Positions 14,638-55,826 of a stretch of DNA of 64,000 nt are shown here, piece by piece. Made by a program: the position numbers and the translations under genes. Positions within the stretch are counted from its first letter, which is position 1. Each line of letters opens with the position of its first letter. A model generated the notes under the pieces. It searched no databases. It was not told the DNA's origin and saw only the letters and a program-made list of their open reading frames with translations. Source of the stretch: a virus; IMG/VR virus record IMGVR_UViG_3300000176_000001. One strand, written 5' to 3'.

Positions 14638-15228
14638 TTATAGTTTGGGGATATGGTCGGGGTCACCCTTAAGATTGCTTGTACGTATCTCCTGAGATGT
14701 GGTATGCATGATGATCGAGTGGCAGTCCTCAACAATGCCATAGTTGGTCGACTTGACATGGATTAGTATATCACACAGGCTTTCACTCTTCATCTTACCG
14801 CCATCAAATCCAACCAAACCAATGGTTGTGAATCCCATCTCTCTTGCCTGATTTAATCCATTAAGTACGTTCTGTGAGTTGCCGCTGGCTGATATACCGA
14901 TGGCTATTCCATTATCATGAGGAAAGTGTCTGAGCTGGTGACTAAACACACTGTCATAACCGATATCATTTGCCAAGGCAGAGAACAGTGCCATGTTCGA
15001 GCTCAGGCTGATAACGTTAGGAATAAAGTCAGTGTCTGTCAACACACCCTTTGAGTGGTCACATGCGAAGTGGTCTGCGGTCGAAGCCGATCCACCGTTA
15101 CCAAACACATAGACTGGCTTATTTGTGCGAGCAGCGTGTGTCAGATGAAACACCATACCAGCATAATCGCCTTGGTCGATAGTGTCTAGCGCTTGATTAA
15201 GATACTGAATGTATTTGCTTAAAGTCAT
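14638..15228 (-). CDS. gmhA: Phosphoheptose isomerase (SIS domain)
   Basis: FGNGGSAS.ADH, ANDIGY, ISASGNSQN, GFDGG, VEDCH. Confidence 0.9.
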   Translation of the reverse strand: MTLSKYIQYLNQALDTIDQGDYAGMVFHLTHAARTNKPVYVFGNGGSASTADHFACDHSKGVLTDTDFIPNVISLSSNMALFSALANDIGYDSVFSHQLRHFPHDNGIAIGISASGNSQNVLNGLNQAREMGFTTIGLVGFDGGKMKSESLCDILIHVKSTNYGIVEDCHSIIMHTTSQEIRTSNLKGDPDHIPKL

Positions 15229-16217
15229 ATAGATAGCTCCACTGTCGATCCCTTGTCTGTAAACTTAAAGTCCATCTGTTTATATCCCTCTTCAGCCATC
15301 GTCTCTCTGAGTTGTGCCTGTTTACTCTTCGGTATATAGAACAGCATGTAGCCACCGCCTCCTGCACCGAGCAGCTTGCCACCTAGTGCGCCGCAGCTCA
15401 TTCCCTGCTCATACATTATATCTATGATAGGATTTGATATACTCTTTGCCAACTTCTTCTTGATGCGCCATGATGTATCGAGTAGTGCACCAAAGTCATC
15501 TAAGTGTCCATTCTCTATATACTTGAGTGCTACCTCAGCTATATCTACAAGACTGGATGTCTGATTGATTGTTGTGTTCTGCGTAATGCCACCCTCTAGT
15601 CCCTTGACCTGCTCTTTCAGCACAGAAGACGCTGCTCTTGTGACACCAGTGTTGAAGCACAATAAGTTATCGTTTAGCTCCTCAACAACAGATGGCTTAA
15701 TAAAGACAGGTCTCACCTCAACTCCTGATGAGTTAAACCTAATCACGTTGAAGCCACCAAAGGCTGCAGCGTACTGATCCTGCTTACCAATCGGCTCACC
15801 GCACATATTAATCTCGATATGTGACGCGAGCTCAGCTAACTCAAGACGATTAGTCTTCTTACCAAGCATCTCGAACATAGCGTGTAAGCTACCGACGGTG
15901 AACGTTGAAGATGAGCCTAATCCACTACCACGAGTATCAATGTCAGAGAAACTGCATAGCTCTACATTGCCATACACATTAAAATATTCCATGATTGCCT
16001 TGATGCGATCATGCTTGATGTCTACCCTATGATTAGTCAGCTCGAGCTGTGAGTAGATGATCTTAAAGTGGTTGGCCTGACACTTATTGGCTGCGATGTA
16101 TATGTTCTTATCAATAGAGGTGGAGATGACCATACCTGGATACTTGTTGTAGTACTGCGGTATGTCACTTCCACCCCCAAAGAAAGATATCCTTAACGGA
16201 GTCTTTGTTACAATCAT
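15225..16217 (-). CDS. hddA: D-glycero-alpha-D-manno-heptose-7-phosphate kinase (GHMP family)
   Basis: TPLRISFFGGGSD, GSGLGSSS, IGKQDQY, GGKLLGAGGGGY. Confidence 0.9.
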   Translation of the reverse strand: MIVTKTPLRISFFGGGSDIPQYYNKYPGMVISTSIDKNIYIAANKCQANHFKIIYSQLELTNHRVDIKHDRIKAIMEYFNVYGNVELCSFSDIDTRGSGLGSSSTFTVGSLHAMFEMLGKKTNRLELAELASHIEINMCGEPIGKQDQYAAAFGGFNVIRFNSSGVEVRPVFIKPSVVEELNDNLLCFNTGVTRAASSVLKEQVKGLEGGITQNTTINQTSSLVDIAEVALKYIENGHLDDFGALLDTSWRIKKKLAKSISNPIIDIMYEQGMSCGALGGKLLGAGGGGYMLFYIPKSKQAQLRETMAEEGYKQMDFKFTDKGSTVELSI

Positions 16218-17227
16218 TAGACTTTATACCTAAACATCTCTCTCTTCTTCAATGCTCTCGACTCTGCGTCTGGATACTGCTGAAGTAGTCCCTTCATCAC
16301 TGTATTCCATTGGCTAGATATCTTTTGGATATTAAATCGTGCATCAGCATATGTCTTTGTAAAGCCTAGATAGTTTTGTGCATTCTCGGTGTTAACAATA
16401 TTAACAGCCTCATCAAGATGTGCATAAAAGATATTGGCGTGATTGTTTGGATTGGTGTCATATGGGTACATAGATGTTAATCCACCTGAAGTGTCGGCCA
16501 ATGCACCGAAGTTAGGATGCACGCACAACAGACCGGCACTCATCGACTCCATCAATACGCGGCAGCTCGTCTCAGCCCAGATAGATGGATATGCTAGGAT
16601 GTGTGCCTTGCTAACAGCCTCACGCAATACATCATTAGGCTGGAAGCCATGATAAGTCATCTTTGGATGATTGCGTATGCGATCGAATAGTGCCTCATAC
16701 TTCTCGTCTGCTTCTTCCCAGCCATAGATCTTATAGCTAGAGAACACATCGAGATGAACGTTGTCATGGTGCTTTGCAAGCTCTTCAAACACAGGCACTA
16801 GCAACTCTAGACCACGATGTGGTGTCGAGAAATAGATGAGACGAACCTCATCTTTGCTCTTCTCTACACGCTTGAATGGTTCAATTGGTGTCTCTAATAC
16901 AACTGAGTCGGATGACTGTGGGAAACCAAGCTTATCGACATACTGCTGATATTGCCAGTTGCTCGAGAACACAAACTTATGAAAGCGATCACGACTGCGT
17001 GGATCTTGCAGGTGATTGGCTTCTGGATCTTCTGCTAGGTCATGTAGCCAGTATATACGAATCTTGTCGTCTTGCAACTCACGCACGCGTGCAGGAATAA
17101 CCTGAAAGTTACTTGCTAACTCTGGGTCGACCAAGGCGGCGATTGATCTCTTAGTGATCTCTGTGCCGCCTTGTGATTTTTTTGATATCTCATTCTCTTC
17201 AAAAGCATTATATTGTTCTTCAGTCAT
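16217..17227 (-). CDS. GT-B (GT4-like) glycosyltransferase
   Basis: GGTE, WLHD, YFSTPHRGL, YPSIWAETSC...ESMSAG (EX7E). Confidence 0.85.
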   Translation of the reverse strand: MTEEQYNAFEENEISKKSQGGTEITKRSIAALVDPELASNFQVIPARVRELQDDKIRIYWLHDLAEDPEANHLQDPRSRDRFHKFVFSSNWQYQQYVDKLGFPQSSDSVVLETPIEPFKRVEKSKDEVRLIYFSTPHRGLELLVPVFEELAKHHDNVHLDVFSSYKIYGWEEADEKYEALFDRIRNHPKMTYHGFQPNDVLREAVSKAHILAYPSIWAETSCRVLMESMSAGLLCVHPNFGALADTSGGLTSMYPYDTNPNNHANIFYAHLDEAVNIVNTENAQNYLGFTKTYADARFNIQKISSQWNTVMKGLLQQYPDAESRALKKREMFRYKV

Positions 17228-17253: not shown

Positions 17254-17637
17254 TTATACTGTTTCTGTTGAATTTTCAGACGGTGCTTGACGTTCTAAGA
17301 AAGCCGTACGAAAGTTTGTATACTTAAAATACTTCTTAGTTAGTTCAATAACAATCTGTGGGTCATATGGCTTGCATGAGAAAACATCAAGATAGAATGT
17401 ATTATTTTCTTCTACAAAGTGCGCGCAGATATTAGAAGTCTCGATTAATTGTACGAGAGTATATCCTTGCTTATTACCACTACCAAAGTTAACTACCTGT
17501 GGCTCACCATATGGTACCATATCGATGTCTACTACTAATTGTTTTGCAAATGCTGTGATATTATCAGCAGATGAGATAGATTCCGGATTACAACCGGATG
17601 CGTCAATGATTAGGTGATATCCCCAGTATTCACTCAT
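17254..17637 (-). CDS. speD: Pyruvoyl-dependent S-adenosylmethionine decarboxylase-family proenzyme
   Basis: GYHLIID..GC, LIET-SNICAH (self-cleavage Ser), YLDVFSCK. Confidence 0.85.
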   Translation of the reverse strand: MSEYWGYHLIIDASGCNPESISSADNITAFAKQLVVDIDMVPYGEPQVVNFGSGNKQGYTLVQLIETSNICAHFVEENNTFYLDVFSCKPYDPQIVIELTKKYFKYTNFRTAFLERQAPSENSTETV

Positions 17638-17672
17638 TAGTCAGTACTCCCATGTACATTGTTAAGGTGATT

Positions 17673-18635
17673 TTATTTATAGATCCTAAACGCGGCTGCT
17701 TCACCAGTACGTTGTCCCAAGCATTCCCACTTAAAGCCGGTGCGATCAAGGAACTCTAGGAAGTTCTTATACTCATGCTCTTTATGGTCAGGGTGACCGT
17801 GTATCTCATCGAACACGATGATAGTGCCATCAACAAATCTGTCCTCGAGTGTGCGCATCACGTAGTCTGTTGATGAGTATAGATCTGCATCAAGATGTAT
17901 AACAGATAAAGGACCTGGATTATTTGTGGCCCACTCTTCTAGAGTATTGTTAAACCAGCCGATGACTAACTCAACGTTGTCAGCCAAGTCTGTTGGTGGC
18001 TCACAGGCGAAAGCACCTTTTCCAACATCCTCTTTCCAGTCTTCTGGAAGTCCTTCAAACGAGTCAAATCCCCAGATCTTTCTATCTGGTGCTGCAGCAG
18101 CCATCTCCCTAATAGACTTACCCTCAGCAACACCAAATTCAAGCACTAAGCCATCAGGCAAAGCTCGTTCAAATATATCATTAAATGTAATATTACCAGC
18201 CATAGTAATATGTTTAATAATATCCTCTTCATTATTTCCACTAAGAGTATGTTTAAGGTCTGCTTGTCGACGCATAAAATTAGTTTTATATACTTTCATT
18301 CCATAATGTTTAGCCATCATATTAATGATAGGTTCCTGATTAAATGATCTATCAATCATCATATCAAAGTAGATTGCACTGTCACTGGGATTTGTGTATA
18401 TACTAATCATTCCAGTTACTAGTGCTTGATGAATAGCTAATGCATCAGATTCAGGATTATACTTAAATACGTTTGGATAACCGGATGCTGGAATTGGATA
18501 TACAGAGTATATTGATAGCAACTCAATTAAAAATTGTTGTGATGTATCAAATGATTTAAGACTTTCTAGATCACAATCAGATCCTTCAACTGTGTAGTGA
18601 TAGCCAAAGGACTGACCCCATACTCTATTTGCCAT
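17673..18635 (-). CDS. Fusion of a degenerate SpeD-like domain and a TylF/MycF-like SAM O-methyltransferase
   Basis: aa 10-126 align by eye with the adjacent SpeD. C-terminal LEFGVAEG, GFDSFEGLPEDW, GWF, HLDADLYSST, FDE. Confidence 0.8.
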   Translation of the reverse strand: MANRVWGQSFGYHYTVEGSDCDLESLKSFDTSQQFLIELLSIYSVYPIPASGYPNVFKYNPESDALAIHQALVTGMISIYTNPSDSAIYFDMMIDRSFNQEPIINMMAKHYGMKVYKTNFMRRQADLKHTLSGNNEEDIIKHITMAGNITFNDIFERALPDGLVLEFGVAEGKSIREMAAAAPDRKIWGFDSFEGLPEDWKEDVGKGAFACEPPTDLADNVELVIGWFNNTLEEWATNNPGPLSVIHLDADLYSSTDYVMRTLEDRFVDGTIIVFDEIHGHPDHKEHEYKNFLEFLDRTGFKWECLGQRTGEAAAFRIYK

Positions 18636-18973
18636 ATTATAATCCTATAGCTACAGACACCATCTGCTCTTTAACACGATCTTGCATTTTTTGTTCTAAC
18701 TTTTCTGGATCCATGATAAACTTAAGCTTTTGCTCAGTAGTCCAGTCCTTGAGATAGTCGTTCTCTTTGTCGAAGAGCTGTAAGTACTCTTCAAATGTAA
18801 TGTCACGGTGTCCAATAACTTGTTCACCGATCCATGTTTGAGACATCTCTTCGACTGAGTCATCACCAATAAAGTCCAGCACTAACTCACTAGGAATACC
18901 CTCTTCTTCACTAAAGACGTATGAGTGGGCAAATGTGCTGATAGTCGTTACTAGTACGAGTTTCTTCGCCATA

Positions 18974-19243
18974 TTAATATCCATCAATTGCTTGAGCGTA
19001 TTCAACCGAGTCTACACGAAACGAACGCCAACCGCCATTTTGTAAATCCCATACAGCAAGCACGTCTGTGTTGCTATTCTTATCGTGCTCTTCCTCAAGC
19101 TTTTGAATATTAGTTTGAGGAGGAAGAAGGTGCGGCTGAAGTGTGCAGTGCATCACACGCTTCTCGCCATTGACTTTGGTAAAGCGAACTTCGACTGCGT
19201 GTAGTTTAAGATCGTTTAACAGATTCTGTCTTGTATACTGCAT
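18974..19243 (-). CDS. WYL-like/SH3-fold protein (DUF2693-like)
   Basis: FTKVNGEKRVMHCT and WDLQNGGWRSFR; start reassigned to MQYTRQ behind a GAGGGGG RBS. Confidence 0.75.
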   Translation of the reverse strand: MQYTRQNLLNDLKLHAVEVRFTKVNGEKRVMHCTLQPHLLPPQTNIQKLEEEHDKNSNTDVLAVWDLQNGGWRSFRVDSVEYAQAIDGY

Positions 19244-24204: not shown

Positions 24205-24576
24205 TTAGAATCCTAATCCGTTGTCGCAGACATCGTTGTAGTTACAGGTTATCTCCTCACCAGCCATGATGTCTCTAGCTGCATAATGTATATATTTAGT
24301 AAAACAATCAAGGTTAGGATCTTCACTATGATTTATAAACCTAACATTGTCTGCAAACATGATAAACTTCTTAAGTGTTTTATCATAGCAGTACATCCAT
24401 GTGATCGTCTCTCTAGTTAGATCATCATATGGATAGTCTTCAGGATCAGGTAACCAACCATCAATGATAGGATCGTGCACCCACACGAGTGCACCTTCCC
24501 TAATATCTTGGTCTGCAAAGAGACCAATACCACGACCATCTACTTCAGCTAAGTATGTTCTAACCTTTAGTGTCAT
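24205..24576 (-). CDS. SET-domain protein (putative lysine methyltransferase)
   Basis: GRGIGLFA, RFINHSEDPN, ARDI.AGEEITCNY. Confidence 0.9.
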   Translation of the reverse strand: MTLKVRTYLAEVDGRGIGLFADQDIREGALVWVHDPIIDGWLPDPEDYPYDDLTRETITWMYCYDKTLKKFIMFADNVRFINHSEDPNLDCFTKYIHYAARDIMAGEEITCNYNDVCDNGLGF

Positions 24577-36831: not shown

Positions 36832-38865
36832 TTATATTTTAGTACGCTTTGGCTTAGGCGGTTTCTTTGTTGCTAATGGCTTTTTTGCTGGTAAAGTCTT
36901 CTGCGTTGTTGCAGCTGGCTTAGTAGCAGCCGGTGTACCCCTTAGTTTATTGTTTTTCTTTTCCATCTCTTTCATGATCTCTCTGCGCTGTTGCTCTTTT
37001 CTAGCTTTCACACCAATAACGTCATCACGCTTGGCATATTTTCCAAGTGATATAGGATTAGTATCTTGATCGATCTTAATGTCCATACCCTGCTTAATAT
37101 CATTAAACAATTCCTTAGCATGCTCATCTTGCATATCTTTAGGAAGACCTTTCTTAAACTCACCAAACTTATTATTGATGGCATGTGATCTCTGTCTGGT
37201 AGCTGATACACTTGATGGATCCTCGGCATCAGCGTCAGGGTCTCTTGTTCCTGCTGAGACGACATCGATTCTCTTAAAGTTATACTCTTTACCATTATAT
37301 GTATCGAGTAACTTCTTAAACTCATCGACACGATCTGATCCAGCAACCATTATGAGATGATCGATGCCCTTGGCAGCTAGCTTCTTTGCTTGCTCAATAA
37401 CAGTAGGTGCATCTTTACCAGCAGCCTCTACATTAACACCAGGGAACATGCGCTTAGCGTGCTTTACCTTTTGTTCCGGTGTAAGTGGATTTTTCTCTGG
37501 ATCTTGTGTTCCTGAAAGCACAACGGTGTGACCGGCTTTTCTGTCTTTAGCTAACTCAAGTACCTTATCTGTAAGTACTTTATGACCAGCAGTAGGTGGA
37601 TTCATACGGCCAAATGCCATGACATGCGGGTTCTTAGTATCTGACTCCTCTGCAGGAGTAGCATCAGGGTCACCCTTACCACGATTATTAGCAAAATTAT
37701 TCTTACTGAACTCTGCACGATCCACGAGTTTTGTAGGTCTACCATTACGTGTAGCAACAAATCCTTCTGGCTTAACTTCTTTACCGCCGACGGTGTGCTT
37801 ATATGGTGTAGGGTTTCCTATAGCCTTGACAAGGACATCTTTAGCCTTTTGTAGATGACTGTGCATCTCAAAGAGTTTCTTAAACTCATCTTTCTTTTCT
37901 TTGGCATGGTCTATGACCTCGTCTGCAGCTGCAGCTATCTTCTGCTTGCCCTTGTCAGACTTAGCCTTATCCACATCTTTCTTTTTCTTAGCTTCAAGGA
38001 ACTGTATGTATCCTCCAATAGAAGGAATGGTGTCATCACGAACTGTCGAGTTGATATATGTCTTCATTGTTATCTCATGCTTCTCTAGATCATCTAGAGT
38101 TGCAGGATCCATCTCAGAGTATACTTTTGCAGCTTCTTCTTTATGCTTCTCAAACTCTTTCTGCATCGAGGAAGAGTAGCGTGTCTTAGACTGGTCAATC
38201 TGTGGATTGATTATATTGACATCAGGATCTTTCTGGAAAGCGTCCTGATCCACATCAAAACCTGCTTTCATGTCATCCAAGCTTTTACCTTCATACTTCG
38301 TGTGTACGACAAACCCCATTTCAGACTTATTAATCTTACGACCTTCAGGACCGTTTTTAGGAATAGAGTAAGTGATCGTATTAGGCGTAAAGCTATAATC
38401 GCTTGAGTTCTCATCTCCTGATAGATCTCCTTTATCATACATGAAGTCGCCTTGGTAGACTCCCTCAGGTTTACCCTTCTCATTCTTTGGCATGATCTTT
38501 GGTAAATGTTCTAGCGCGGCTTTAAGCTTAGCTACTAGACCAGGAGAGTGGCCATGATTGTTCTCAATGTCTTTAACTGTATAGTTGATCTTAGGCTCCT
38601 TGTTAAACACAGACTTGGATCCTACGAAGAATTTACCATTCTCTGGATTAATACCAAATACAATTGATGGAGATCCATCATACTTTGTCGTTATCGTAGA
38701 TCCACCAGCACCTGTCTTAAGAAAGTTATCGATGTCATCGAGAGTATCTGCTGCGTGTCCTACGCCTTCATGGCCACCATGGATTATGTGATCCTCGGCG
38801 TGCTCAAGATGCTTGAGCTTATCAACGTCTAAAGATTCAACTAAGAATGTTTTAAATGTTATCAT
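36832..38865 (-). CDS. Fusion of an RNA-ligase-like domain (DUF6267-like) and an HxGH-type cytidylyltransferase-like domain
   Basis: TKYDGSP (KxDG), YQGDF, PEGFV, TKLV; then FGRMNPPTAGH, AGSDR, SAT. Confidence 0.7.
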   Translation of the reverse strand: MITFKTFLVESLDVDKLKHLEHAEDHIIHGGHEGVGHAADTLDDIDNFLKTGAGGSTITTKYDGSPSIVFGINPENGKFFVGSKSVFNKEPKINYTVKDIENNHGHSPGLVAKLKAALEHLPKIMPKNEKGKPEGVYQGDFMYDKGDLSGDENSSDYSFTPNTITYSIPKNGPEGRKINKSEMGFVVHTKYEGKSLDDMKAGFDVDQDAFQKDPDVNIINPQIDQSKTRYSSSMQKEFEKHKEEAAKVYSEMDPATLDDLEKHEITMKTYINSTVRDDTIPSIGGYIQFLEAKKKKDVDKAKSDKGKQKIAAAADEVIDHAKEKKDEFKKLFEMHSHLQKAKDVLVKAIGNPTPYKHTVGGKEVKPEGFVATRNGRPTKLVDRAEFSKNNFANNRGKGDPDATPAEESDTKNPHVMAFGRMNPPTAGHKVLTDKVLELAKDRKAGHTVVLSGTQDPEKNPLTPEQKVKHAKRMFPGVNVEAAGKDAPTVIEQAKKLAAKGIDHLIMVAGSDRVDEFKKLLDTYNGKEYNFKRIDVVSAGTRDPDADAEDPSSVSATRQRSHAINNKFGEFKKGLPKDMQDEHAKELFNDIKQGMDIKIDQDTNPISLGKYAKRDDVIGVKARKEQQRREIMKEMEKKNNKLRGTPAATKPAATTQKTLPAKKPLATKKPPKPKRTKI

Positions 38866-52053: not shown

Positions 52054-53490
52054 TTAGTAATTATAACGCTCAGACATGATTGTCTTGAGCATAATAGCTT
52101 CTGGTGTAAAGTTATCCAGATCTGCTGCCAGAACTGACTTAACAATTGCTGGAGAGAAACCAGATATCAAAGCAGCACCACGCACATCATACTTGACAGG
52201 AACATTGTCTTGAGCATTTAGGTTCCAAAACACAATGTTAGGAATTGTGTAGCCGGCCTCTGCATACTTACGCGCAATCATCTGCATTGCTGAGTCGTCG
52301 AAACGAGCGCATTGGTCAAATTGCATGTCAGACAGAATCAACAGAGCTGCTGGCATCTCTTCGTGAGGAACATTATTCTCAATAGCAACATCTAAGATCT
52401 TTTGAATAGCTGCATTAAGGTTAGTGTTCATTTCCCATTCAGATGATACCATCTGCTTCATCTTATCAAGGATATTACCAGTGAGATTAAGAAGCTTAGG
52501 TTTTTCAGAGAAAGTCAAGAAGGTATCCTTGAACTTACCCTTGTTCTTATCTGCAAGGTAAAGACCTAGAGACACAGATACATCCAAGCAAGTAACAGAA
52601 GACTTAGAGTTATAGCCACCTGCCTTAGATATCATAGAACCTGAAACGTCAACTAGTGGAAGAATATTAGCATCACCAACATAGTTAGGCAATGCTTCCC
52701 ACTGAGCCAAGATGTGGTTCATGTTAGACTGATCATAGTTATTACGATAACCAGAAGGCCAAACACCTTTAATAACATCGTAAGGATAAACTGCACCAGC
52801 ATTAACCTTAACCTCTGCACGATCTTCAGGCTTATCAGAGACAAGCTTTGCAGCCCATTCCTTATACTTCTCAGTGTGACGTGAGAATGCCTTCTTATAA
52901 CGTGAAGAAGCAACAGAAGGAACGTGGTTGAAGTTAATGTTATCCCAGTCCTTTGCACACATCTGAGTCTCAACAACTTGTGTCAATTCAACCAGACGCT
53001 TACGATAGAACTTAGGAGTCCAACCAAGGTGCTTACGAAGCTTTGCAGCTACTTCACCCTGACGAGGCATCCACTTTGCACAAAGACCATTGCCCTGCAT
53101 AAGAGCAGCATAGATGAATGAGAAAGCAAAGCCTTCTAACTCAGTATCAACTAGGACGAGCAAGTCATCCCAACGACCAAGTTCTGGTACCTTCATGATC
53201 ATTGCACGTGCACGATCCTGATCTGTCTTAGCAAGATCCAAAAGGATGTCACGGAAGATCTTACGCTCACCAGCACCACCACGGATGTCACGAGCCCACA
53301 ATGCAATACGACCAGCGATATCTGCATCTTGAACACGAGCTGCTGTGAAAGCAGGAATTACGTTTTGCCCACGCATAGCACCAATCTTGAAGAACAAGTC
53401 AGTAAGAGCGTTAGCAGTAGATGCACGAGCCTTCATGCCATTTGTAGTTCTATCAGATTGATTTTGAACAGCGCTTGCAAATGTAGTCAT
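52054..53490 (-). CDS. DUF2828 family TROVE-like/vWA (Ro60-related) protein
   Basis: ARDIRGGAGER, GRWDDL, AKWMPR, VPS.A, MIDAS DVSGSM, LSDMQFD, FWNL, SGFS; start reassigned to MTTF behind a GGAG RBS. Confidence 0.85.
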   Translation of the reverse strand: MTTFASAVQNQSDRTTNGMKARASTANALTDLFFKIGAMRGQNVIPAFTAARVQDADIAGRIALWARDIRGGAGERKIFRDILLDLAKTDQDRARAMIMKVPELGRWDDLLVLVDTELEGFAFSFIYAALMQGNGLCAKWMPRQGEVAAKLRKHLGWTPKFYRKRLVELTQVVETQMCAKDWDNINFNHVPSVASSRYKKAFSRHTEKYKEWAAKLVSDKPEDRAEVKVNAGAVYPYDVIKGVWPSGYRNNYDQSNMNHILAQWEALPNYVGDANILPLVDVSGSMISKAGGYNSKSSVTCLDVSVSLGLYLADKNKGKFKDTFLTFSEKPKLLNLTGNILDKMKQMVSSEWEMNTNLNAAIQKILDVAIENNVPHEEMPAALLILSDMQFDQCARFDDSAMQMIARKYAEAGYTIPNIVFWNLNAQDNVPVKYDVRGAALISGFSPAIVKSVLAADLDNFTPEAIMLKTIMSERYNY

Positions 53491-53510
53491 ATCACTTCTC
53501 CATTTTACTA

Positions 53511-53566
53511 CAGATTCAACTTTTGTTTGTTTCGATACAAATTTTGAGGGTTGCGGAACTGAATCT
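53511..53566 (-). ncRNA. Y-RNA-like element 1 (short)
   Basis: AGATTCAGTT-CCGCAA...AAACAAA-AGTTGAATCT-G terminal helix. Confidence 0.6.
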
Positions 53567-53573
53567 AAATCGA

Positions 53574-53635
53574 CAGGATCTATTCTGCTTTTTCCATAAA
53601 AAAGTGCCTTACGGCAATTGTGCTGTAAAGATCCT
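53574..53635 (-). ncRNA. Y-RNA-like element 2 (short, GNRA hairpin)
   Basis: AGGATCT-TTACAGCA...TGCC-GTAA-GGCA...GCAGAAT-AGATCCT-G. Confidence 0.6.
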
Positions 53636-53643
53636 AAAATCAA

Positions 53644-53752
53644 CAGAGTGAATTTTGTTTGCCTCACCACGAGGCGGACTCGTCAGATGTGACGAATATT
53701 GGAGTCGAACCAATCATAGGCTTTTAGGCCATTTATTTGCTGAACTCACTCT
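53644..53752 (-). ncRNA. YrlA-like Y RNA with permuted tRNA domain
   Basis: Terminal helix AGAGTGAGTT/AATTCACTCT encloses a T-arm, a loop-closed acceptor-like stem and a D-arm, in that order. Confidence 0.72.
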
Positions 53753-55308: not shown

Positions 55309-55731
55309 TTATATATCCGTCTTAGAAAGTCCAGCCCTCTGCCTCAGCTCAGTGGTAGAGAACCTATGTTTACGGGAATTGTATTCTATATCAATACCAG
55401 CATCAATACAGTACTGTTTTCCTGTAAAATCTTTGCCAATATAGTCTTCCCCGATAAATCTAATATTAATATCAGCTGTCTGTAATATATCCATAAGATC
55501 CTGCTCGGTCTCATACACTATAATCTCATCGATATATTTGACTGCTTGTAGTTGCAATTGTCTCTCTACAATAGATTGTACGGGTTTATTCTTAGTATCG
55601 GGCCTATCTATTGTAGGGTCTGTCTGTAATCCTACAATAAGATAGTCGCAATTATTTTTTGCCTCCATGAGCATAAGGACATGACCGGCATGAAGAAGAT
55701 CAAAGGTACTACAAGTAAATCCAGTTTTCAT
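55309..55731 (-). CDS. TagD/HldE-C-like cytidylyltransferase-family nucleotidyltransferase
   Basis: TFDLLHAGH, ER, VKYIDE, GEDY, STTELR. Confidence 0.9.
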   Translation of the reverse strand: MKTGFTCSTFDLLHAGHVLMLMEAKNNCDYLIVGLQTDPTIDRPDTKNKPVQSIVERQLQLQAVKYIDEIIVYETEQDLMDILQTADINIRFIGEDYIGKDFTGKQYCIDAGIDIEYNSRKHRFSTTELRQRAGLSKTDI

Positions 55732-55826
55732 TATACACCCCATTTTATAAATAAGTACACATGAATTTTAGTTATTTACTGTGAATTTTAGTTATTTTTT
55801 TACATAAAATTACCAGGAGATAACTA

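Follow-up and report, generated by a model that had tools for sequence, protein, structure and literature searches.

Bacterial class 1b S-adenosylmethionine decarboxylases (AdoMetDC, SpeD) are half-enzymes that dimerise via their beta-sheet faces, and the eukaryotic enzyme consists of two fused halves (PMC5201418). Several catalytically dead relatives of these enzymes have been described. Human and animal spermine synthase (SMS; 3C6K/3C6M) combines a C-terminal class I transferase, of the S-adenosylmethionine (SAM)-methyltransferase fold, with a non-catalytic, AdoMetDC-like N-terminal domain that is required for dimer formation and for stability (PMC13700777). The trypanosomatid AdoMetDC prozyme (5TVM/5TVF) is a dead pyruvoyl decarboxylase paralogue without processing residues, encoded alongside the live enzyme, and in Victivallis vadensis a class 1b SpeD homologue devoid of active-site residues and unable to self-cleave is retained in a fused polypeptide, the SpeD-degraded SpeDC fusion (Li et al. 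2023, PMC10407285; PMC9992855). Here, we describe a further arrangement in a T4-like phage, found in a stretch of 64,000 nucleotides (hereafter the window) of the IMG/VR virus record IMGVR_UViG_3300000176_000001. A protein of 320 amino acids (aa) carries a dead SpeD-like domain in front of a sugar O-methyltransferase, and its gene is followed by that of an intact SpeD homologue. By analogy with spermine synthase, the dead domain was most likely recruited as a pairing module that homodimerises the methyltransferase, a reading to which we give a rough probability of 0.55.

The N-terminal domain (N-domain) of the fusion corresponds to class 1b AdoMetDC/SpeD (PF02675) in sequence and in predicted fold over its whole length. 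BLASTP aligned the live SpeD (127 aa) with the fusion at E=4e-10, with 23% identity over 116 aa (SpeD 6-118, fusion 11-125) and 4 gap positions, and this alignment contained all six motif pairs from which an earlier note on this DNA had claimed end-to-end homology. The Pfam profile AdoMet_dc covered aa 13-123 of the fusion (profile positions 1-106 of 107); the score of the window N-domain, 21-24 bits, was just under the 25-bit cut-off, and the N-domains of four orthologues reached 28-35 bits. An AlphaFold2 (AF2) model of aa 1-132 had a predicted local distance difference test score (pLDDT) of 86.8, and its best Foldseek matches in the PDB were the AdoMetDCs of Thermotoga maritima (1VR7/1TLU) and Aquifex, with template modelling scores of 0.73/0.81 and a root-mean-square deviation of 2.3 A. 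The alignment behind this model included SpeD rows, and the full protein was also refolded from an alignment without them: the order of strands and helices in the N-domain was the same and 1VR7 was still matched. The models thus predict the SpeD fold, without which the earlier proposal of a dead paralogue would fall. In the full-length model (predicted template modelling score 0.63), pLDDT dropped below 50 at aa 123-132, where the linker region is predicted to be disordered. When fusions, methyltransferases and SpeDs were aligned together with MAFFT, the SpeD rows were spread over both domains, and this alignment was discarded.

Loss of the catalytic residues was assessed by aligning six fusion N-domains with 22 live homologues, and the seventh known variant (IMG/VR record G001) was compared too. 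In all seven variants, the pyruvoyl-forming Ser68 of the live family is replaced by Gly75 (window codon 18411-18413), the processing His73 by Tyr80 (18396-18398) and the catalytic Cys88 by Asp or Asn at position 95 (Asp95 in the window, codon 18351-18353). Likewise, Thr/Ser60 of the live family is mostly Ala67 in the fusions (Thr60 to Ala67 in the window). The neighbouring SpeD retains Ser68, His73 and Cys88, which are invariant in the live family. The N-domain thus lacks the self-cleaving Ser, the catalytic Cys and the processing His of class 1b enzymes. This confirmed for all variants the change of Ser to Gly and the loss of Cys reported in the earlier note, and supported its view of the N-domain as an inactive SpeD paralogue; the change of His to Tyr is an additional loss absent from that note. 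Since Ser, His and Cys are all replaced, the dead copy would be able neither to process itself nor to catalyse. Other positions of the sheet region are common to both paralogues (G11/Y12/H13, Q70, T74, Y89, D91, R123), including the Thr that precedes the lost Ser.

The C-terminal domain (C-domain) belongs to the TylF-type methyltransferases, as had been claimed earlier, according to Pfam (PF05711 TylF, 53 bits for a cut-off of 23; PF13578 Methyltransf_24, 42 bits for a cut-off of 26.3), to PDB matches and to Foldseek. Its nearest solved structures, by sequence and by Foldseek, were CalS11 (a TDP-rhamnose 3'-O-methyltransferase), SpnH, MycF and NovP, which are all TylF-family sugar O-methyltransferases. 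It resembles these enzymes, as well as mycobacteriophage O-methyltransferase or glycosyltransferase-methyltransferase genes, in sequence, fold, SAM motif I and DxD...DE acidic residues. In contrast to the TylF-type enzymes of antibiotic pathways, the phage domain is compact (~185 aa) and without the N-terminal lid, the dead SpeD occupying the N-terminal slot. Aa 136-320 equal whole stand-alone methyltransferases of ~185 aa, abundant in bacteria and phages, whose alignment begins at aa 136. All residues invariant in 31 such homologues (E166, G168, G172, D191, D249, D251, D276 and E277) were retained, as were motif I LEFGVAEG, GFDSF, HLDADLY and FDE; SAM motifs I and II were identical to those of the stand-alone proteins, and comparison with these gave no signal of a cofactor-pocket change toward decarboxylated SAM (dcSAM). 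The domain is therefore apparently intact, and its sequence suggests a working SAM- and metal-dependent sugar O-methyltransferase. The closest structures and the heptose genes around it point to a sugar, presumably a heptose, as the methylation acceptor. Beside the FDE motif, at aa 278-291 (window 17763-17804), the fusion clade differs from the 31 stand-alone homologues by Tyr281 to His, Tyr284 to His and Ala291 to Asn, substitutions which may reflect a changed acceptor pocket. Other N-terminal additions occur in the same methyltransferase family, namely CTP_transf (P0012), tetratricopeptide repeats (TPR; P0074) and, in mycobacteriophages, a glycosyltransferase.

The architecture was also sought in other phages, as the earlier note had proposed. 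In a search of 5.8 billion proteins the fusion proved rare, with five other clusters of 318-322 aa and 57-88% identity. Altogether, it is conserved in seven variants, all on freshwater T4-like phage contigs whose metagenomes came from lakes or other freshwater-type sources. The order fusion, SpeD, family 1 glycosyltransferase (GT1), GHMP kinase (HddA-like), SIS protein (GmhA) was the same on every one of these contigs, and the tandem of fusion and intact SpeD first noted in the window was found in all seven variants. When the whole library was searched by HMMER with the N-domain as query, a dead SpeD appeared in no other architecture: apart from the fusion clade itself, the matches were three ordinary SpeDs and two repeat proteins, of which we take the last two to be spurious. 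In a tree, the dead domain fell within the live phage SpeD family on a very long stem branch and was not sister to the neighbouring SpeD, a placement made unsure by the long branches.

Pairwise Nei-Gojobori ratios of nonsynonymous to synonymous substitution rates (dN/dS) were 0.08-0.09 for the N-domain, 0.075-0.08 for the live SpeD and 0.04-0.07 for the methyltransferase domain, estimates that are rough because dS is near saturation (1 or more). Aa 128-159, one of the segments used in this comparison, are the least conserved part of the fusion. At long distance the N-domain diverges fastest: between the window and the fusion-bearing contig L001, identity was 39% for the N-domain, 71-73% for SpeD and 78% for the methyltransferase domain. 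The ratios nevertheless indicate that the dead domain is under purifying selection, and that it is apparently dead as an enzyme but not junk.

Each of the described systems shares part of this architecture and departs from it elsewhere. Unlike spermine synthase, the phage protein has a TylF-type metal-dependent sugar O-methyltransferase as C-domain instead of an aminopropyltransferase (PF01564), and no central beta domain; its dead domain is still linked by sequence to live SpeD, and a live paralogue adjoins it. The likeness is thus an analogy of architecture, not membership, and the two fusions appear to be independent, convergent events. The prozyme is a class 2 double-domain protein whose edge-to-edge pairing with its partner uses a dimerisation domain specific to eukaryotes and lifts an N-terminal autoinhibition (PMC5201418), whereas the phage domain is a single half-sandwich of 127 aa without dimerisation or autoinhibition elements, fused to an unrelated enzyme. 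In V. vadensis the live paralogue is itself the fusion partner of the dead domain, the two making a eukaryote-like pseudo-dimer; in the phage the dead domain sits on a methyltransferase and the live paralogue has a gene of its own. The literature was searched for a dead SpeD-methyltransferase fusion and no description was found. Reuse of pseudoenzyme domains as scaffolds, the spermine synthase precedent and fusion of SpeD to other enzymes are known; the attachment of a dead SpeD to a sugar methyltransferase adds a variation to this known theme.

The live SpeD has a large family on phage-like contigs, with more than 2,700 clusters (117-135 aa), almost all without a dead paralogue. The window protein is placed in class 1b by its Pfam homology and its Ser, His and Cys, and with the family profile its Ser aligned with the Ser at which Aquifex AdoMetDC 2III is processed. 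A phmmer search of the PDB with the single SpeD returned spurious MxiH matches only, and the family profile was needed to reach 2III. Its processing site, E-T-S-N, differs from the canonical E/D-S-H; the corresponding sites are A-E-S-H ... HTxPE in a cyanophage SpeD (B23), Q-D-S-H in that of Sinorhizobium phage phiN3 and E-T-S-H in a pelagiphage homologue, the last being the one that the window site resembles. On TIGR03330 it scored 40 bits for a cut-off of 75.65. It resembles the phage homologues, of 117-122 aa, among the neofunctionalised ornithine or arginine decarboxylases (SpeDC/SpeDA) of phages and bacteria (PMC10407285; PMC9992855). Among these, five from freshwater Myoviridae/Caudovirales are ornithine decarboxylases that did not complement a speD mutant, and that of HTVC201P is an arginine decarboxylase (Li et al., PMC9992855). 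The window SpeD is therefore probably a pyruvoyl ornithine (or arginine) decarboxylase and not an AdoMetDC. No PF01564 match, which would have indicated a spermidine synthase, was found in relative G001 (99%-complete, 164 kb).

Fusions of live SpeD to other domains were seen among its longer relatives, where no methyltransferase fusion was found. P0263 and P0264 (414-415 aa) combine a live phage-type SpeD with a DDAH-like (pentein) domain, perhaps joining an arginine decarboxylase to an agmatine-processing enzyme; P0266 (481 aa) carries an M74 murein endopeptidase and P0262 (252 aa) a WYL_2 domain. The DDAH-like and M74 fusions come from metagenomes. Additionally, the ESM Atlas holds a cluster of 298 members, with a 439-aa representative and mostly from candidate division WWE3 bacteria, in which AdoMet_dc is joined to BpsA_C (branched-chain polyamine synthase).

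We propose that the fusion is the sugar O-methyltransferase of a phage heptose-glycan module comprising GmhA, an HddA-like kinase, an RfaE-domain-II-like adenylyltransferase and GT1. This enzyme would have gained an N-terminal duplicate of the phage's small SpeD-type pyruvoyl decarboxylase, a duplicate retained by selection, most likely for pairing, although its chemistry was lost; an origin of the dead copy from the SpeD family at this very locus would explain why the live SpeD adjoins the fusion. In class 1b enzymes each protomer forms an alpha-beta half-sandwich with an open beta-sheet face that needs a second half, and it is on this ground that we infer a pairing module. Since the N-domain was not confidently packed against the methyltransferase in the full-length model, and its sheet face was not predicted to be buried against the C-domain, the partner should be either a second dead domain or the live SpeD. 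A second dead domain would yield a methyltransferase homodimer and leave the live SpeD, probably an ornithine decarboxylase, as an auxiliary enzyme in its own right. Spermine synthase offers the structural parallel: Foldseek aligned the full fusion model with human 3C6K_B over both domains (388 columns, E 7.8e-8), and the N-domain model alone also matched this chain.

Some observations weigh against this proposal. The choice of a homodimer over a heterodimer draws on analogy and residue logic, and the tandem with live SpeD kept in all seven variants is also what functional pairing of the two would lead one to expect. Several related phages have a methyltransferase, of one family or another, close to SpeD, and a SpeD-methyltransferase link may exist. 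Phage phiN3 encodes the closest cultured homologue of the window SpeD (35% identity), for which AdoMetDC activity has been demonstrated, and the ornithine decarboxylase-type assignment, made by family resemblance only, has in our estimate about two chances in three of being right. The evidence of selection is tempered by the near-saturation of dS mentioned above.

It is possible, although rather unlikely, that the dead half-sandwich sits face to face with a live SpeD protomer, either tethering the decarboxylase to the methyltransferase or regulating SpeD. Pairings of live and dead SpeD are known from the V. vadensis fusion and from eukaryotic class 2 enzymes (PMC10407285), and such an arrangement would follow a general pseudoenzyme principle (PMC5201418). 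Retention of the tandem pair down to 57% identity and the sheet-region residues common to both paralogues would be in agreement with it. The dead domain, however, has lost the residues acting in cis (Ser, Cys). We take Ser55/His68 of T. maritima to be equivalent to Ser229/His243 of the second half of the human enzyme, each half lending His and Ser to the site of the other; by this presumed equivalence, the His and Ser/Thr lent to the partner site are gone as well, and a mixed dimer would therefore lack any complete site. Given these losses, a heterodimer would more likely act as a brake on SpeD, or titrate it, than activate it in the manner of a prozyme. Moreover, the paralogues are just 23% identical, and the many live SpeDs without a fusion show that the live family needs no helper. 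Co-adaptation was sought in the SpeDs of fusion-bearing phages and gave one weak diagnostic column but no signature; the window SpeD is in fact closer to that of the fusion-free contig L005 (75%) than to that of fusion-bearing L001 (73%). That a hybrid complex of dead and live SpeD couples or throttles polyamine synthesis and methylation of virion or host glycans during infection seems more doubtful still; if true, a phage pseudoenzyme attached to an unrelated enzyme would regulate the live paralogue from there.

We consider it improbable that the vestigial pocket binds ornithine, a polyamine or an adenosyl compound and thereby regulates or targets the methyltransferase. The dead prozyme of T. 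brucei does bind putrescine between its sheets (PMC5201418), the N-domain is under apparent purifying selection, and pocket-region residues of the live family are kept, including T74 beside the lost Ser, Y89, D91 and R123. These residues may nevertheless be merely structural, and the pocket of a half-sandwich needs a partner sheet, so that ligand binding would add to a dimer model without replacing it. The mechanism put forward in the earlier note, a prozyme-like activator docking the methyltransferase on an AdoMetDC so as to share SAM or use dcSAM, is very improbable and found no support, in spite of the pair of dead and live paralogues, the lack of SpeE in G001 and the existence of bacterial SpeD-aminopropyltransferase (BpsA_C) fusions. 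The fused methyltransferase belongs to a sugar module and has the unchanged SAM motifs of its stand-alone homologues, the live SpeD is of the T-S-N type, like the tested phage homologues that are not AdoMetDCs, and a widespread live family without dead paralogues requires no activator. The prozyme relies on a dimerisation domain and an autoinhibitory N-terminus that are eukaryote-specific and lacking in bacterial enzymes (PMC5201418), and its strict mechanism therefore cannot apply. Equally hard to defend is the view of the N-domain as a functionless, decaying remnant of a tolerated duplication: its faster divergence and very long stem branch fit such decay, but seven variants carry it whole and without interruption, its dN/dS is about 0.08, and six sequences sufficed to predict a confident fold.

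The fusion gene and its neighbours form a minus-strand string at 14.6-19.5 kilobases (kb) of the window, in the order glutaredoxin, WYL_2 protein, 122-aa unknown open reading frame (ORF), fusion, SpeD homologue, GT1 glycosyltransferase, HddA-like GHMP kinase, GmhA-like isomerase, unknown ORF and T4-type RNase H (Table 1). The start of the fusion gene is coupled to the upstream ORF (TAATATG); this ORF had no match in Pfam, PHROG or NCBIfam. The live SpeD starts 35 nucleotides past the fusion stop and has its own ribosome-binding site, GGGAG.

Table 1. Position and supporting evidence of the fusion gene, its domains and associated genes in the window
Feature	Coordinates	Strand	Evidence
Fusion gene (320 aa) for a sugar O-methyltransferase preceded by a dead SpeD-like domain and a linker	17673..18635	-	ORF; Pfam TylF 3.5e-14, Methyltransf_24 1.9e-10, AdoMet_dc 4e-4
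N-domain of the fusion, aa 1-127: predicted SpeD/AdoMetDC class 1b fold, catalytically dead (Gly75, Tyr80, Asp95, Ala67)	18255..18635	-	AF2 model, Foldseek, substitutions
Linker of the fusion, aa 128-135, low-confidence, fast-evolving	18231..18254	-	Model pLDDT; start of stand-alone methyltransferase alignment
C-domain of the fusion, aa 136-320 and stop codon: TylF/CalS11/MycF/NovP-type metal-dependent sugar O-methyltransferase, apparently intact	17673..18230	-	phrog_6608 8.7e-45; PDB sequence matches; Foldseek
Live SpeD homologue, 127 aa, T67-S68-N69 processing site, His73, Cys88	17254..17637	-	Pfam AdoMet_dc 3.3e-22
GT-B family 1 glycosyltransferase (GT1)	16217..17227	-	Pfam Glycos_transf_1 5e-10; phrog_2170 2.5e-43
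GHMP kinase like HddA (D-glycero-D-manno-heptose 7-phosphate kinase)	15225..16217	-	NCBIfam NF049969 3.5e-50 (below curated cut-off); Pfam GHMP N and C domains
GmhA-like sedoheptulose 7-phosphate isomerase, SIS domain	14638..15228	-	TIGR00441 gmhA 4.4e-29 (below cut-off); Pfam SIS_2
RfaE-domain-II-like heptose 1-phosphate adenylyltransferase, dispersed	55309..55743	-	TIGR02199 2.5e-21; Pfam CTP_transf_like 5e-13
Unknown ORF, 122 aa, upstream of the fusion and coupled to it	18637..19005	-	Positional counterpart of 91-115 aa in most relatives

A related contig of 84 kb (L005/L006) carries the genes for SpeD, Cpn10, an RfaE-II-like adenylyltransferase, a stand-alone methyltransferase (184 aa), GmhA, a GmhB-like phosphatase, a transaldolase, GT1 and an HddA-like kinase, in this order. 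Its heptose genes, transaldolase included, form a single block (L005:7603-12396) which, to judge from the predicted functions, covers the full pathway leading from sedoheptulose 7-phosphate to a nucleotide-heptose, together with a transferase and a methyltransferase. As the same methyltransferase stands alone within this complete pathway, it should be a sugar-module enzyme. The heptose set of the window is reduced and split: GmhA, the HddA-like kinase and GT1 lie together (14638-17227) and the RfaE-II-like gene is found 37 kb away, whereas its counterpart is inside the cluster in L005 and L015. This dispersed gene is likely to provide the nucleotide-activation step of the heptose pathway. No GmhB or transaldolase was found for the window, the transaldolase search having been run on relative G001.

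Among related phages, SpeD and GT1 were never missing between WYL_2 and RNase H while the genes around them were exchanged, and GT1 occurred at this locus in all those examined. This slot held an epimerase and a Methyltransf_23 enzyme in L015 (6001-11527), a Methyltransf_11 enzyme and AhpC in L016 (5039-7976), and a weakly methyltransferase-like ORF of 274 aa in L017 (5172-8973). The latter, located upstream of SpeD, was considered as a diverged dead-SpeD fusion and rejected, being a weak methyltransferase-like protein. SpeD is thus the constant neighbour within a plastic region that gathers unrelated auxiliary genes, and the exchange of neighbours around SpeD and GT1 implies that the methyltransferase belongs to a variable sugar-modification module.

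Three further minus-strand genes of the window, away from this locus, were recorded. A protein of 677 aa (36832-38865) combines DUF6267 with a weak cytidylyltransferase-like domain and is 98% identical to its counterpart in G001. A SET-domain protein of 123 aa (24205-24576), also present in L007, adjoins the ribonucleotide reductase genes, and a protein of 538 aa (52054-53670) contains DUF2828/DUF7788.

The fusion is apparently an independent second case of the event behind animal spermine synthase, in which a SpeD/AdoMetDC half-enzyme lost its catalytic function and took on a second use as the N-terminal module of a SAM-fold transferase. In the phage case the live parent family can still be recognised and one of its members adjoins the fusion, which makes this a small and tractable system for the recruitment of pseudoenzyme domains as scaffolds, in which one can ask if a dead domain still talks to its live paralogue. 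The live SpeD homologue probably should not carry an annotation as SAM decarboxylase. Finally, our data draw attention to a variable heptose-glycan module in freshwater T4-like phages.

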